Positions 3,554-9,441 of a stretch of DNA of 64,000 nt are shown here, in pieces. The stretch spans positions 21,199 to 85,198 of the forward strand of contig JBEKKX010000004.1 of NCBI GenBank assembly GCA_050010515.1. The letters are read 5' to 3'. The first letter of the stretch is position 1, and every line of letters begins with the position of its first letter. This DNA is from Candidatus Bathyarchaeia archaeon. Lineage in GTDB: Archaea; Thermoproteota; Bathyarchaeia; Bathyarchaeales; Bathycorpusculaceae. The notes under the pieces were generated by a model that was not told the DNA's origin, did not search any database, and was given only the letters and a program-made list of their open reading frames with translations. The translations under genes were made by a program, and so were the position numbers.

Positions 3554-5824
3554 CTATCGTTTCCTGGGTATGTCGAATTCGAATCTTGCGCCTTTTCCAA
3601 GGTCGCCTGTCTCTTTGACTGCCCATCCGTAGATGTCGCAGGTTCTTTTTATCAGGTATAGGCCAAAGCCGGTGCCGTGTCCGAAGCCTTTTACGAACAA
3701 GTGCGTTTTGGCTTCTTCATCTATGCCTCCGCCGTCGTCTTCGTAGATGATTCTTTCGGATCCGTCTTTTTCTTTGCGGTGGTAGACTTTTATCTGGGTT
3801 AGGTTTTTGCCGTATTTGAGCGAGTTGTCGATTAGGTTGTGGAACACGGTTGTCAGCATAGAGTCAGCAAGTATGTTGAAGCCTCTGCATTCGTTAGTTA
3901 TTTTGGCGCCTTTGAGTTCGCTGAAGAGAGAGGCTGCTTGGTCAATCGCTTTTCCCACGTCTGTCAGGGTGCGTTGCTCGCTTCCTAGTGATTCGTAGTT
4001 TTTGGCGAACTCGAGTATGCAGGTAATGTTTGTGACTGCTAGGCTAATCTGGTTTAGATATTGGTTTATTTTCGGGTCGCTGCCTGCGTGCTTCTTGACT
4101 AGGTAGGCATTTCCTTCGATGGTCATCAGTTTGTTGCGGACGTCGTGCCGGGTGAAGCTTCCGATTACGCTGAGCTTTTCGTTAAGCATTTCTGAGTGCT
4201 TGAGTGCTGCTTCAATCTTCTCCTCTGCGGCGACTTCGTTCGTCATGTCTTTGTAAACAGTCACGCTTCCGATTCTTTTGTCACCGACCGAAACGGAGGC
4301 TAAAGAGACAAACACCTGCAGCGTCGAACCGTCTTTGCGTTTTCTCTTTGATTGAAAACTCACTGCGTGGCTACCGCTTTTTTCGATGTTGTTCTGCATT
4401 TCCTGTTTTAGTTCTTCGGGAACAAGAATATCTATCAGGTTTTTGCCTCGGACCTCCTCTGGCGTGAACCCGAAGACTTCAGTGAATTTGGGGTTAATGC
4501 TGATAACGCAGAAGTTTTCGTCAGAGTATGCAACCGCTTGGGGGTTTGAATTAAACAAGGCCTTGAATTCTTCCCGACTTTCCCTGAGCTCTTTTTCTCT
4601 TTGTTTTTTCTCAGTTATGTCCACGCAGATTTCTGAGGCTGCTGTGATGTTTCCGTTTTTGTTTCTGATTGGGGAAGCGACGATTTCAACCCAGTAAGGT
4701 CGGCCTTCGAGTGTTGTGGAGAAGTATTCGTGTGAATCTACTTCAGTTTTTCCGGCGAAGATTTTTGCGACGCCGCAGTCTGAGCAGGGTGCGTTCAGAG
4801 TGTTCAGGACAGTGTAGCACAGTTTTCCAATTGAATCTCCCTTGTACTCACGGATAAAGTTGTTCGCGTATATTATGTGATAGTCTTTGCTGATGATTAC
4901 AAAGCCCGCGCCGATGCTTTGAGTCAGCGCCTCAAGCATGTCTCGGTCTTCTCGGACTTTTTCTTCCATTTTCTTGCGCTCGGTGATGTCTTCAAGTTCC
5001 ATTATGAAAAGAGAGATTTTGCCGTCTTTATCTCGTAATGCGCTTGCGTTGAGCTTTCCGTAAATTATGCTTCCGTCTTTTCTTATGTAACGTTTCTCTA
5101 AGCTGAAGGTAGGGATTCTTCCTGCTTTCAGATTTTCCACTTTGGCGACATTTTCTGAGAGGTCGTCAGGATGGGTGATTTCACTGAAAGTTAGGTTTCG
5201 TAGTTCGTCTTGCGTGTATCCGAGTATTTTGCAGAATGTGGCGTTTGCGGTCTCAAAAAGTTTGCTGGCGGAATGTGAAGCGGCAATCCCGATTGGAGCG
5301 TTCATGATTACGGCTTCTAATTGTTTCTCGCTGTAGTTGAGAGCGGACTTCGCCTGTTTCTTTTCAACGCTCTGACGGATGTAATGGGTCAGTTCGCCGT
5401 AAACCGTCTCGGGGTTTCCCTGTTTGTTTACGTACCCGTCTGCTCCGAGATTTAGCGCTTTGATGACTATTTCCTCTCTGCCTTTTCCAGTTAACAGTAT
5501 GAATGGAATTTCTGTTTTTTGTTCTCTGAGTTCCATGAGGAAATCTAGCCCGTTTTTAATGGGCATTTCGTAATCTGATACGATTGCGTCGTACGATGCG
5601 GATTCCATTTTAGTGCAGGCTTCCTCGACAGATTCGGCAGTGTCAACTTCGAAACTGCTTTCCAACGATAGGATCTGCTTAGAAACCTCTAGGAAAGAGG
5701 CATCATCGTCAACATATAGGATGTGCAGGCGTTTTTGTTTGACTTCACCTAAGTTAAGTTCTATTTGGGGTAACGGAATAACTGAGGGGGAAATCTCTTT
5801 GTGCTTCGCTGGTGCTTTTTCCAT
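3554..5824 (-). CDS. Hybrid sensor kinase: REC + multiple PAS + histidine kinase/HATPase
   Basis: LYVDDD/DYEMP receiver domain; PAS/PAC segments (HPDD, RKDGS); H-box RHDVRN; NLIDNSLKY, DDGGG and GTGFGL boxes. Confidence 0.92.
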   Translation of the reverse strand: MEKAPAKHKEISPSVIPLPQIELNLGEVKQKRLHILYVDDDASFLEVSKQILSLESSFEVDTAESVEEACTKMESASYDAIVSDYEMPIKNGLDFLMELREQKTEIPFILLTGKGREEIVIKALNLGADGYVNKQGNPETVYGELTHYIRQSVEKKQAKSALNYSEKQLEAVIMNAPIGIAASHSASKLFETANATFCKILGYTQDELRNLTFSEITHPDDLSENVAKVENLKAGRIPTFSLEKRYIRKDGSIIYGKLNASALRDKDGKISLFIMELEDITERKKMEEKVREDRDMLEALTQSIGAGFVIISKDYHIIYANNFIREYKGDSIGKLCYTVLNTLNAPCSDCGVAKIFAGKTEVDSHEYFSTTLEGRPYWVEIVASPIRNKNGNITAASEICVDITEKKQREKELRESREEFKALFNSNPQAVAYSDENFCVISINPKFTEVFGFTPEEVRGKNLIDILVPEELKQEMQNNIEKSGSHAVSFQSKRKRKDGSTLQVFVSLASVSVGDKRIGSVTVYKDMTNEVAAEEKIEAALKHSEMLNEKLSVIGSFTRHDVRNKLMTIEGNAYLVKKHAGSDPKINQYLNQISLAVTNITCILEFAKNYESLGSEQRTLTDVGKAIDQAASLFSELKGAKITNECRGFNILADSMLTTVFHNLIDNSLKYGKNLTQIKVYHRKEKDGSERIIYEDDGGGIDEEAKTHLFVKGFGHGTGFGLYLIKRTCDIYGWAVKETGDLGKGARFEFDIPRKR

Positions 5825-6150
5825 AAATCAAGAGTCACTATGAAGAGACTATAAGGATTATTAAGCCGCAATTCTGATTACTAATCATTTTCCAAACAAT
5901 CGTGCATTTTATTGATCAAGAATGACATCTGTTCTCGTTTTGACCTCTCAGACAGTGGCAAGGCATCGTCAGTTTTTGTGTCTGCGGGGCTATCCAAAGC
6001 AACCGAACCATCAACAACGCAGGCTTCTTGTCCACAGTGCTCCTTTATCTTGTGAGTTTTGCGTTATTTTCCAGAATGATAGGCCGCTAGCGCTGCTCTT
6101 TGTTTGGGGTTAAGCTAATATAGTCTGTGAGGGTTACTTGGGGGCAGTGT

Positions 6151-6188
6151 GGTAGTTTCCGTATATAACCTACCTTAAAAAACCCGGG
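6151..6188 (+). ncRNA. Candidate preQ1-I (preQ0/preQ1) riboswitch aptamer
   Basis: 5-bp stem GGTAG/CTACC, loop TTTCCGTATATAAC ending in AC, A6 tail, then CCCGGG able to pair with loop TCCG. Sits immediately 5' of queT. Confidence 0.7.
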
Positions 6189-6197
6189 TTGAATGAA

Positions 6198-6689
6198 ATG
6201 AGATTAAATACTAAAAAATTAGCAGTTGTTACTGTTTTTGCCGCTTTGTATGCGGTTGGAGTTATTTTTTTGGCGCCGATAAGTTTTGGAGTCTTTCAAG
6301 TAAGGGTAGCTGATGCGCTGTTGCCGCTGTCGATGATTTTTGGGCTCCCAAGTGCGCTGGGCCTTAGTTTGGGCTGCATAGTTTCTAACGTTTATGGCGG
6401 GCTTGGAATAATTGATATTGTTGGCGGTGCAGCTGCAAATCTTGTTGCTTGCACTTTGGCTTGGTATATTGGTCGTAAAGGAAGGGGTGCTCAGCGGTTT
6501 CTGGGAACTGTTGCAGAAACAGTAGCTGTTGCTTTGATTGTTGGAGGATACCTCTCACTGATATTTCAGGTTCCACTTGAAATCAGTCTCTTAGGAGTAC
6601 TTATTGGCGAAACGATAGCGATAAACCTTATAGGCTTCCCCATAGAAGAAGCGATAAGACGGAGCAAAATTTTTAGAAAATACAGCTAG
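6198..6689 (+). CDS. queT: QueT-family queuosine/7-deazaguanine precursor transporter
   Basis: AALYAV...APISFGVFQVRVADAL...LGCIVSN...DIVGG family signature. ATG 6198 is preferred over the in-frame TTG at 6189. Confidence 0.85.
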   Translation: MRLNTKKLAVVTVFAALYAVGVIFLAPISFGVFQVRVADALLPLSMIFGLPSALGLSLGCIVSNVYGGLGIIDIVGGAAANLVACTLAWYIGRKGRGAQRFLGTVAETVAVALIVGGYLSLIFQVPLEISLLGVLIGETIAINLIGFPIEEAIRRSKIFRKYS

Positions 6690-7019: not shown

Positions 7020-7832
7020 TTGTCTGGAGATTTAGCTCAGAGTCCGTTGATAGAGGTTTCTGGGGTTTCTAAGCGATTTGGTTCTTTTTTGGCTTTGGAC
7101 AATTTGAGTTTGCGTGTAATGCCTGGGGAGGTTTTTGGTTTGTTGGGTCCAAATGGCGCTGGGAAGACCACGACCATCAAAGTCATAATGGGATTGGTGG
7201 TGCCGTCTTCTGGTAAGATAAGTGTTTGCGGCTTTGACCCCCTTAGCGGCTCAGTTGAGGTGAAGGCGAGAATTGGTTATGTGGCTGAGAATCCCATTGT
7301 ATATGAGAGTTTGTCTCCGAGGGATTTTTTTGAGTTTGTTGTGTCAATGCGGAGAATTGATCAGGTTGCTGCTAATCGGATGGTGTCTCGGTTGGCGGAT
7401 GCTTTTGATTTGGCGCAATATTTTGATTCGCCGATAGCGACTTTGTCGATGGGGCTTAAGCAGAAGGTGGCTTTGATTGCTTCGTTTATCCATCAGCCGC
7501 CTATTTTGCTTTTGGATGAGCCTTTGAATGGATTGGACGCTAGGAGTAGTCGAATTGTGAAGGATTTGGTGTCTTTGCACGCCCAAAGGGGTGGGGCAGT
7601 TTTGTTTTCTACGCACATAATGGAGATTGCCGAGCACGTCTGTACGAGGATTGGAATTATTGATCATGGTAAGGTGATTGCTGAGGGAACGCTTGAGCAG
7701 TTGAGGAGTAAAACTGAGGGCAAGAGCTCCTCTTTGGAGGAGGTTTTTTTGAAGTTGACTAATGAGGAAGCTGCGGTTGCTGATACAGCGAGGATGCTTA
7801 GGGAGGCATTCCTTGGGAATGAAACTCACTGA
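7020..7832 (+). CDS. ABC-2-type transporter ATP-binding protein
   Basis: Walker A GPNGAGKTT, signature LSMGLKQ, Walker B LLLDEP, H-loop STH. Confidence 0.93.
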   Translation: MSGDLAQSPLIEVSGVSKRFGSFLALDNLSLRVMPGEVFGLLGPNGAGKTTTIKVIMGLVVPSSGKISVCGFDPLSGSVEVKARIGYVAENPIVYESLSPRDFFEFVVSMRRIDQVAANRMVSRLADAFDLAQYFDSPIATLSMGLKQKVALIASFIHQPPILLLDEPLNGLDARSSRIVKDLVSLHAQRGGAVLFSTHIMEIAEHVCTRIGIIDHGKVIAEGTLEQLRSKTEGKSSSLEEVFLKLTNEEAAVADTARMLREAFLGNETH

Positions 7833-9441
7833 AGCTTGGCGCTTAAGCAAACTGCCGTATAGAGAAGTGGTGTACAGGTCATTAGCGCAGGAAAGGGGTC
7901 GTATGTGGTGGGGGGCTTTTGGAAGAAATCCCTCTGACAGAGACGCATATGAAGACGTTGAGTTAAGCAAAAGAGCGTTACGGATCGCTAAGTTTGACAA
8001 ACTGGTAGTTGCGGTGTTTAATCTTATAGTTTCGGTGGTTCCTTTTGCGTCGCTTTTACTGGGTTCTACAGCGCTGGGTTTGACCAGTTCGGTTTCTCTG
8101 AGTTTAATCATTACGTTTGGGTTTATGACTTTGTACGCAATTCAGACACTTTCTTCTTTTGTTAGCGCGGAGTCCTCAGCGTTGCTTTCTACTCTGCCCA
8201 TTACCTCAAATGACTTTTCATTAGTGACGCTGTTTTCTTTTGTTAGGTCTGTAGATTACCTAGTGGTTGGTTCTGTTTTGAGTCAGGTTGTTTTAGTGGC
8301 TTACCTCACATTGTCCCCTGTAGCTACTGCGCTGATGTTTGGTGCTTCTTTGATGAATTCGGTTTTTGCTGTCGCCGTTGCACTTTGGTTTTCGAGAGTT
8401 TTCCACAAGAACTACTTGCGTGGCGGAAGATCGAAGCGTACCACCCTATTTCGGGGTTTTTTCGTCTTGGTTTGGGGATGCTTGCTTCTGGGGGTAGGTT
8501 TACTTTTGAGCATGCCTTATTATGTTCTTCCTGTTTTGGACAAGGCGTTGCTTAGCGTTAACACTTTATCTGGTATTCTGCTTAGTTTTGTCTATCCGTT
8601 CTCGGCTGGCCTAGCCATCGCAAAATTGTCTGGTTCCAGTGTGCCCCTCGTTACTGTGTTTGGGGCATCGGTTGCTATGGCAGCTTATGCATTAGCAGCT
8701 TGGTTTTCGGCTAAGTGGAGTTTAGGCACGGTGAAGCGCATTTCTATAGGTGCGGGTGTGAGAATTGACAGATTGAGAGCCGTGGATTTCCAGATTAAGG
8801 CGCGCGGTCCTTTGCGAGGCTACGTCACGAAAGATTTACGGGTCACTTCGAGGAACCCAGCCACTGCATTCTTTTTTGCGCTTCCTGTTTTTGAGACGGT
8901 GATTGTGGCGTTTCTGGCGACGAATTATGAGGTGCTTAGGGCTTCAACGGTAATTGTGGCTACTTCTATGGGTGCTATTTTTACTCTGTTAGTTCCTCTT
9001 GCTCTTGTGAGTTCTGAGGGGAAGGAGATTGAATATGCTAAGACTTTGCCGATTACTCCCCAAAGAATGGTGTCTTCTAAAGCTCTAATAACGATGGCGA
9101 CCTACGTTCCAGTACCTTTTGCCCTGGTTTGCCTTGCATTGCTCAAGCCGTTGACCTCATGGTTTACGATTTTGATACCGTTTTTCATGGTAATTTCGGT
9201 AGTTTCTGCAAGCATCTTTGAGATCATGCTTTTTCTGCGCTCTGTTGGCAGAAGTAAAATAGCGGGGATAGTTAATGATGCGGAAAAGATCTTTGCAGGG
9301 CTTCTCACGATTCTTGTGCCGGAAGCTGCTTACGTGGTGGCTTACCTCATCTTATTTAACCATGCATTTGCAGCTCTGACGATGGGTGGAGTTACACTTG
9401 CAGAACTGTGGATAGCTCTTTACGTGCTTGGGCGTAAATAA
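7819..9441 (+). CDS. ABC transporter permease (multi-TM)
   Basis: About 12-14 hydrophobic segments; overlaps the ATPase stop. ATG 7819 is in frame with ORF 7762. Confidence 0.8.
   Translation: MKLTEAWRLSKLPYREVVYRSLAQERGRMWWGAFGRNPSDRDAYEDVELSKRALRIAKFDKLVVAVFNLIVSVVPFASLLLGSTALGLTSSVSLSLIITFGFMTLYAIQTLSSFVSAESSALLSTLPITSNDFSLVTLFSFVRSVDYLVVGSVLSQVVLVAYLTLSPVATALMFGASLMNSVFAVAVALWFSRVFHKNYLRGGRSKRTTLFRGFFVLVWGCLLLGVGLLLSMPYYVLPVLDKALLSVNTLSGILLSFVYPFSAGLAIAKLSGSSVPLVTVFGASVAMAAYALAAWFSAKWSLGTVKRISIGAGVRIDRLRAVDFQIKARGPLRGYVTKDLRVTSRNPATAFFFALPVFETVIVAFLATNYEVLRASTVIVATSMGAIFTLLVPLALVSSEGKEIEYAKTLPITPQRMVSSKALITMATYVPVPFALVCLALLKPLTSWFTILIPFFMVISVVSASIFEIMLFLRSVGRSKIAGIVNDAEKIFAGLLTILVPEAAYVVAYLILFNHAFAALTMGGVTLAELWIALYVLGRK

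Follow-up and report, generated by a model that had tools for sequence, protein, structure and literature searches.

Class I prequeuosine-1 (preQ1) riboswitches (Rfam PreQ1, RF00522; types 1-3) are bacterial RNAs that fold around a 5-bp stem, P1, with a G-C top pair. Their loop starts with UU, carries the 5' strand of a second helix, P2, at positions 3-6, and closes with a segment, L2, that ends in AC, its terminal C lying beside the P1 3' arm; a tail of the form (A/U)UAAAAAAC follows P1, and the P2 3' strand overlaps the Shine-Dalgarno (SD) sequence. Their link to the gene queT is documented in the accessible sections of PMC5372724. We find these features, with P2 as a putative helix, together with the placement ahead of queT in a 38-nt element of a Bathyarchaeota genome (own assembly 2.38 Mb, 42.6% G+C, completeness 98.5%). 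The element occupies positions 6151-6188 (+) of the 64,000-nt stretch analysed here, hereafter the window, and precedes a queT gene whose ATG stands at 6198. It is a strong candidate for a class-I-like preQ riboswitch in archaea, where this type has been unreported so far.

Class II and class III preQ1 riboswitches (RF01054 and RF02680) also precede queT-type genes (COG4708), and they hide the SD sequence in a pseudoknot. Both are much larger than the window element and are reported from narrow bacterial groups only, a restriction that the accessible sections of PMC5473149 state for class III; neither model matches the window at gathering score, nor 6050-6260 or 6144-6197 at E ≤ 10. The same sections of that 2017 survey, from the Breaker laboratory, give the archaeal riboswitches as thiamine pyrophosphate (TPP), fluoride and, occasionally, flavin mononucleotide (FMN), Mg2+-I and guanidine-II. 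In the full-text literature, with McCown 2014 and the supplements of both surveys outside its coverage, we found no archaeal riboswitch for preQ1 or prequeuosine-0 (preQ0), nor any assigned to queT.

The element reads GGTAG (6151-6155), TTTCCGTATATAAC (6156-6169), CTACC (6170-6174), TTAAAAAACC (6175-6184) and CGGG (6185-6188); re-reading the sequence bore out the coordinates of all parts given in a preliminary description of this DNA. The gene was correctly named there as well: the open reading frame (ORF) at 6198-6689 (+) matches Pfam QueT (PF06177; 1.2e-28), scoring 100.6 bits where the cut-off is 33.7, and would encode the S subunit of an energy-coupling factor (ECF) type transporter that takes up queuosine or archaeosine precursors. 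Its ATG at 6198 is invariant in 19/19 relatives from the genus, in which the TTG at 6189, in frame with queT, is not kept. We put at roughly 0.6 the probability that 6151-6188 is the aptamer of a small cis-acting queT leader RNA, an archaeal variant that would work as a translational OFF riboswitch for preQ0 or preQ1.

That the element is beyond chance is decided by its conservation. Using only the QueT protein as query, and so blind to the leader, we screened the 120 genus genomes and found this QueT type in 19 of them at 67-100% protein identity; the element, for which conservation in related queT leaders had been proposed as a check, is carried by all 19. From P1 to CCGG the mean pairwise identity of these relatives is 95% (8 of 38 columns variable), compared with 86% for the TATA box (3 of 8), 76% for the first 30 coding bases of queT (19 of 30) and 41% for the 28-nt spacer between TATA box and P1, every column of which varies (28/28). 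The genomes behind these figures are related to one another. Taken by itself, shape says little, since shuffled genomes also match it: a relaxed class-I-like descriptor has two matches in the 2.38-Mb genome, one of them this site, and 0, 1, 0, 1 and 0 matches in five mononucleotide shuffles of it. The genome holds a single copy of the element; the other descriptor match (G000 C7 near 18600, minus strand; GGTCC..GGGTC, then ATAAAAAA) is probably due to chance.

The class-I-like features singled out in the preliminary description, namely the 5-bp P1, the U after its 5' arm, the loop end AAC and the A-rich tail, are all kept in the relatives. The P1 5' arm GGUAG (6151-6155) pairs with its complement CUACC, the 3' arm (6170-6174). 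Between the arms lie L1 (UU, 6156-6157), the P2 5' strand UCCG (6158-6161; core C6159, C6160 and G6161) and L2, UAUAUAAC (6162-6169). L1 is invariant in 19/19 relatives, as is the terminal AAC of L2; in the alignment of the relatives, columns U46-U48 at the loop start and A57, A58 and C59 at its end do not vary. The P2 core CCG is unchanged in 19/19 relatives and in 21/21 distinct sequence variants. Downstream of P1, L3 (6175-6184) consists of the A-rich tail UUAAAAAA, invariant in 19/19, and a linker, CC; it leads into the P2 3' strand CGGG (6185-6188; core C6185, G6186 and G6187), whose CGG is invariant in relatives and variants alike. The last base of L2, C6169, adjoins the P1 3' arm and is the candidate ligand-pairing base. 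By analogy with class I aptamers, we take the U after the P1 5' arm and the C before the P1 3' arm to be putative ligand contacts.

The sequence variants come mostly from metagenomes. A scan with a pattern that fixed GTAG followed by UU, CTAC, AAC and UUAAAAAA returned 79 further stretches, and the downstream ORF is QueT in 63 of the 69 that are readable. Pooled with the 19 genus copies, these 63 give 82 QueT-linked copies and 21 distinct element sequences. UU, CCG, AAC, UUAAAAAA and CGG are fixed in all 21, as the pattern itself required, CCG and CGG having been demanded for the variant count; the unbiased evidence for invariance is therefore that of the 19 protein-found copies only. Elsewhere the variants differ. 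The middle of L2 changes in base, and L2 measures 8 nt in 17 of the variants, 7 nt in three and 9 nt in one; the linker after the A-rich tail reads C in 11, CC in 4, AC in 4, GC in 1 and TC in 1. The "two extra C's" held in the preliminary description to shift the P2 register are thus part of a linker that varies among relatives. The first position of the P2 5' strand is U in 19, C in 1 and A in 1, and the outer P1 pair is G-C in 14, A-U in 2 and U-A in 1. Variation sits where a class I fold tolerates change, in mid-L2 and in the L3 linker.

Public records were matched with a loose pattern, which hit at least 120 stretches; among the matches listed, L089, L110 and L112 are true copies of the element. 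Records L089 and L112 are titled Candidatus Bathyarchaeota archaeon and, together with large- and small-subunit rRNAs of relatives that match archaeal models, support an archaeal host. In L110 (1275-1300), filed as a metagenome-assembled genome of an uncultured Chloroflexia bacterium, the element and the queT start are identical to the window; this contig may be mis-binned.

Most relatives (QueT genes of the genus and the order) have a different and larger leader of about 70 nt, seen in loci L011-L038 and L176-L214, for example at 1426-1506 of locus L017. Its consensus opens with GGCGGGUGAGUGG..CUCCCACCCGUUCCGCC and continues through an A-rich linker to CCCGG; a few bases further on come GGGAGG and the start codon. 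An insert of 20-30 nt after P1 bears an anti-SD sequence, and the strong SD (GGGAGG or GGAGGUG) pairs with it to form a helix, P3; the hiding of the SD recalls class II and III preQ1 riboswitches, neither of which matches the large leader at E ≤ 10. At gathering score the Rfam models found one rRNA and nothing else in 20 large-leader loci, and at E ≤ 10 nothing relevant in one large leader. We built a covariance model, R1, from 28 copies. It finds the large leader in 118/151 genomes of an order sample, mostly as one copy each, and in 28/151 genomes of a phylum sample, including families outside the class (f21, 9/15; f33, 3/3; f37, 2/2).

The helices of this leader covary. Our alignment has 61 distinct rows, the window element included, and was not fitted to P2 or P3, as both lie outside the R1 model. 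P1 is 100% paired throughout, and in 4 of its 5 pairs both partners change; P3 is 96.5% paired, with covariation in 4 of 6 pairs. The covariation score was reached by 0/500 shuffles, and slid controls were all far lower. In the large form the P2 core CCG/CGG is invariant, and the fourth pair is C-G in 28, U-A in 4 and other in 27.

The ORF after the large leader is QueT in 29/29 loci that have one, a further locus ending at a contig edge, and QueT also follows 5/5 second copies. In 35/67 large-leader loci, some of them the same place counted twice, queT is followed on the same strand by queC (Pfam QueC scores: L017, 214 bits; L023, 213 bits), usually after a gap of 16-74 nt; the large leader therefore heads queT-queC operons. 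Riboswitches of the preQ1 type classically control such a regulon, and it upholds the link of the regulon to preQ0 made in the preliminary description. The large leader is a separate riboswitch candidate class, apparently undescribed. In genomes G040 (L018, L199) and G145 (L203), leader, queT, queC and a second queT paralogue lie on a single strand.

How do the two forms relate? R1 aligns P1 and AAAAAACCCGGG of the window with the large form. Common to both are the place of P1, the A-rich linker and CCCGG, the invariant CCG/CGG, the distance to the TATA box, the downstream queT and related QueT proteins. The window form differs in having neither strand of the anti-SD:SD helix, and in an L2 of 8 nt ending in AAC where the large leader has only UU to link P2 with the P1 3' arm. 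We placed 115 QueT proteins in a quick maximum-likelihood tree, midpoint-rooted and with groups set by leader type; in it, 60/60 short-form proteins make up one clade (Shimodaira-Hasegawa-like approximate likelihood-ratio test, SH-aLRT, 98) nested among large-form proteins, with L189, L204 and L210 as sisters. The short form thus looks like a derived, minimised leader, which would have lost the helix strands and gained a longer L2 ending in AAC.

The short-leader clade has mostly lost queC. QueC is missing at E ≤ 1e-20 from 16 of its 19 genomes; two of the others show matches below the threshold, and only G060 has one over the cut-off, compared with QueC over the cut-off, right after queT, in 80 of the 101 other genus genomes. 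All of these genomes are kin, so they do not count as independent samples. In the genome of the window no QueC exceeds the cut-off (best TIGR00364 match 23.8 bits against 150.3). It encodes an archaeal-type tRNA-guanine transglycosylase (arcTGT, 279 bits), a PTPS/QueD-like gene and an ECF T component. With arcTGT present and no QueC over the cut-off, the gene set fits that of a preQ0 salvager, as had been suggested.

A comparison with class I was made by eye only, using the Rfam consensus and the Bacillus subtilis queC aptamer printed in PMC4521916. The consensus has a 5-bp P1, a 12-nt loop that starts with UUC and ends in C, and the tail AUAAAAAACUAAGG, of which the A-rich part, AUAAAAAAC, has its counterpart in UUAAAAAA of the window. 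In the B. subtilis aptamer, UU-CUAG-CUACAC makes up the loop and AUAAAAAA-CUAA the tail; their counterparts in the window are UU-UCCG-UAUAUAAC and UUAAAAAA-CC-CGGG, which agree in L1, in the offset of P2, in the AC at the end of L2 and in the tail. The putative P2 of the window element, CCG/CGG, is unlike that of class I, and its host is an archaeon, where preQ0 is expected rather than preQ1. According to the accessible sections of PMC8222354, C15 and the G5-C16 pair are important in the Thermoanaerobacter aptamer, the latter as the partner of the 7-aminomethyl group of the ligand, and preQ0 binds it with an affinity 17-fold below that of preQ1. C6169 lies at the position of C15, and the top pair of P1 is G-C; by this likeness C6169 would be the base that pairs with the ligand. 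Since the short element appears to descend from a larger archaeal leader, its likeness to class I may be convergent.

Upstream of the stem, the preliminary description had noted a TATA-like box. It reads CTAATATAG (6115-6123, +), with TAATATAG at 6116-6123, and is conserved in the 19 relatives, always about 28 nt before P1; it is probably the archaeal promoter element of queT. From a TATA centre near 6119, the usual archaeal spacing would place the transcription start about 26-27 nt further on, at 6146-6147 (+), five bases before P1. Two metatranscriptome contigs, both of a single study, span 6162-6289 and 6162-6355 and so carry the leader, from 6162 on, in one piece with the queT start. This speaks weakly against a leaderless queT transcript, the case named in the preliminary description as contrary to its reading; the uncovered 5950-6161 and the contig ends near 6155-6158 are not readable as a transcription start. 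Terminator-like sites are absent across 5825-6300, and the 373-nt intergenic region upstream of queT has no sigma-70-like site either. With no terminator-like site in the leader, a translational OFF switch is the most likely mode.

The SD of queT is best judged against the 16S rRNA 3' end of a genus relative, GGATCACCTCCT, as none was found in the own assembly. Among 39 distinct tails of relatives, 11 match its complement with GGUGA, GGUGAU, GGUG or GGAG, and in 34/39 the SD-like match begins 1-2 nt into CGG. In the window the SD-like GGGUUGA (6186-6192, +) does overlap the proposed P2 3' strand, as the preliminary description had it; the motif itself is weak.

In archaea preQ0 is the base that tRNA-guanine transglycosylase inserts. 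We propose that the leader folds as an H-type pseudoknot of the kind seen in class I preQ1 aptamers: P1 (GGUAG:CUACC) would close a loop running from UU to AAC, the A-rich tail would lie along P1, and C6159-G6161 would pair with C6185-G6187 as P2. A 7-deazaguanine base, most probably preQ0 and possibly also preQ1, would bind at the junction of P1 and P2. Once bound, it would lock P2 and bury 6186-6189, which hold the only SD-like purines and lie 9 nt before the AUG; abundant base would then mean less translation of the importer.

Several observations weigh against this reading. A search with Infernal and the Rfam PreQ1 model, suggested in the preliminary description, found nothing at this site: there is no match in the window at gathering score (39 bits), where no other Rfam family matches it either, none at E ≤ 10 on 6050-6260 (211 nt) or on 6144-6197 (54 nt), and none at 6151-6188 among the 15 weak matches in the whole genome. 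By this covariance-model test the element is no member of RF00522. Its loop has 14 nt (13-15 in the 21 variants) against the 12 of the Rfam consensus, L2 being two bases longer and L3, of 9-10 nt, one or two. The P1 hairpin alone reaches -3.0 kcal/mol, and the minimum free energy fold of 6125-6215 is ordinary (z 0.73; 154/200 shuffles fold at least as well).

The pairing, too, has gaps. The outer P1 pair is mismatched in 4/21 short variants. The pseudoknot UCCG/CGGG of the preliminary description keeps an invariant core, and its fourth pair, U6158-G6188 in the window, is paired in 11 and unpaired in 10 of the 21 variants. Where that description had looked to covariation among archaeal queT leaders, P1 covaries over the 61 rows; the short-form P2 amounts to three pairs, CCG/CGG, which show no covariation because both strands are invariant. 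R1 gives the window site 12.5 bits (E 1.43 in its own genome); on 226 kb of loci the site has E 0.14, with true members at 42.7-89.4 bits. Ahead of its P1 3' arm the large leader carries UU in place of C, so that both forms cannot use a class I pocket if they sense the same base. The longest exact match of the window SD to the anti-SD complement is GGU, and the match spans just 3 nt (GGU or GGA) in 23/39 distinct tails, the window included. Finally, the two metatranscriptome contigs each represent a small share, and the libraries may hold DNA.

One alternative is a riboswitch for another ligand, be it guanine or another purine, 7-carboxy-7-deazaguanine, the archaeosine base or queuine, with a likeness to class I that is architectural only. 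The failure of the Rfam PreQ1 model and the excess length of L2 and L3 would suit it, and the sister leader, lacking the loop-terminal C, may have a different pocket. Moreover, the substrate of archaeal QueT is only predicted, and transport by QueT is given as unverified even for bacteria in the accessible sections of PMC5372724. The regulon argues otherwise: besides queT, sister lineages include in it queC, the gene for the enzyme that makes preQ0. Residues that contact preQ1 in the Thermoanaerobacter aptamer are also matched, by the C at the loop end and by the G-C pair at the top of P1, and we regard another ligand as unlikely.

That a regulatory protein binds the element, either as RNA in the leader or as a DNA operator just past the TATA box, we consider improbable to much the same degree; the RNA would then sense no small molecule. 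The GGTAG/CTACC inverted repeat stands right after the promoter, where archaeal repressors often bind, but the spacing of its arms varies (loops of 13-15 nt, and more in the large form), which is awkward for a dimeric DNA binder. The near-invariance of the sequence itself, beyond pairing, the lack of covariation in P2 and the unremarkable folding energy could all reflect bound protein. Set against them, the sister leader shows covariation of the RNA-helix kind in both P1 and its anti-SD:SD helix, class I preQ1 aptamers classically have such an A-rich tail and overlap with the SD, and the element lies on the sense strand of a leader that RNA-library contigs join to queT. A protein operator is disfavoured because the arm spacing varies and the sister leader shows RNA-type covariation.

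A reading without any regulatory role, in which the element is what decay has left of the larger leader or resembles an aptamer by chance, is very improbable: the element does lack the anti-SD:SD helix of the large form, and the relaxed descriptor matches random sequence about 0.4 times per genome, yet its conservation contradicts a functionless relic, with 95% identity beside an adjoining spacer at 41% and presence in 19/19 genus genomes and 63 QueT-linked metagenome contigs, over QueT proteins down to 67% identity.

We thus retain the preQ0/preQ1 riboswitch as the preferred reading of 6151-6188. A wider proposal is possible and is offered more tentatively. The short element and the larger leader may form one archaeal preQ0 riboswitch family, widespread in Bathyarchaeia and in other classes of the phylum, which would hide the SD and would have arisen independently of the bacterial preQ1 riboswitches. 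On this view the short form would have been pared down from the large one and would have converged on the class I fold after its lineage had lost queC and become dependent on salvage.

Some candidates were set aside. The best PreQ1 match of the genome, at 22.3 bits (L001 1501-1543, minus strand), is treated as chance; no gene follows it, and a search with ARAGORN detected no tRNA at this place. In five bacterial genomes RF00522 has no match at E ≤ 0.001. An alternative pairing seen in a 70-nt fold, UAACC:GGGUU, was dropped because relatives that read CCGGUGA at this place cannot form it.

Other loci resemble the element in part. L269 (5721-5750, +) has the same P1 and tail, a 12-nt loop (TTTCCGGCGAAC) and a 5-bp CCGGA pairing; a bacterial-looking AGGAG stands ahead of an ORF that has no Pfam family and is cut by the contig end. 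L244 (3366-3395), L246 (1389-1418), L247/L283 and L260/L263 combine GGTAG..CTAC(C/T) with TTAAAAAA and do not lie beside queT; their candidate P2 pairings are TTAG:CTAA, or GGTAAGG with CCTTCC or CCTACC, and no ORF of at least 50 aa is found near L244. None of these seven loci reaches the cut-off of any Rfam riboswitch model. In L239, L264 and L289 (for example L239 886-918), a short-leader variant with TTCCCCG precedes a QueT ORF of 77 aa. L239 also has a distant QueC-like frame (30% identity) downstream and a second QueT of the large type; this locus may be decaying or rearranged. The loose pattern also matched ...TTCCGTAATTAACACATATTTTAAAAAAGGAGAAAACATG in the Streptococcus mitis records L131 and L147, which might be the 3' portion of a leader of preQ1-II type in streptococci.

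Around the element, the divergent neighbour 5' of queT is a hybrid histidine kinase with PAS, receiver and HATPase domains (3554-5824, minus strand). Near queT on its other side, 7020-9441 (+) encodes an ABC ATPase and a 12TM_1 membrane protein in frames that share about 70 nt. Neither ECF T nor ECF A genes adjoin queT; a CbiQ-type T component is encoded elsewhere in the genome (G000 C50).

Few riboswitch classes are known from archaea. If the element binds preQ0 or preQ1, a nucleobase-sensing class would be added to them, along with a case of SD-sequestering translational control in an uncultured and abundant lineage of sediment and peat. The short and the large leader would then be a natural pair of minimal and large aptamers for one regulon and a model of riboswitch shrinkage, the former, at about 40 nt, being small enough for biochemical and structural work. 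For these archaea, it would provide a direct handle on the salvage of the archaeosine precursor.

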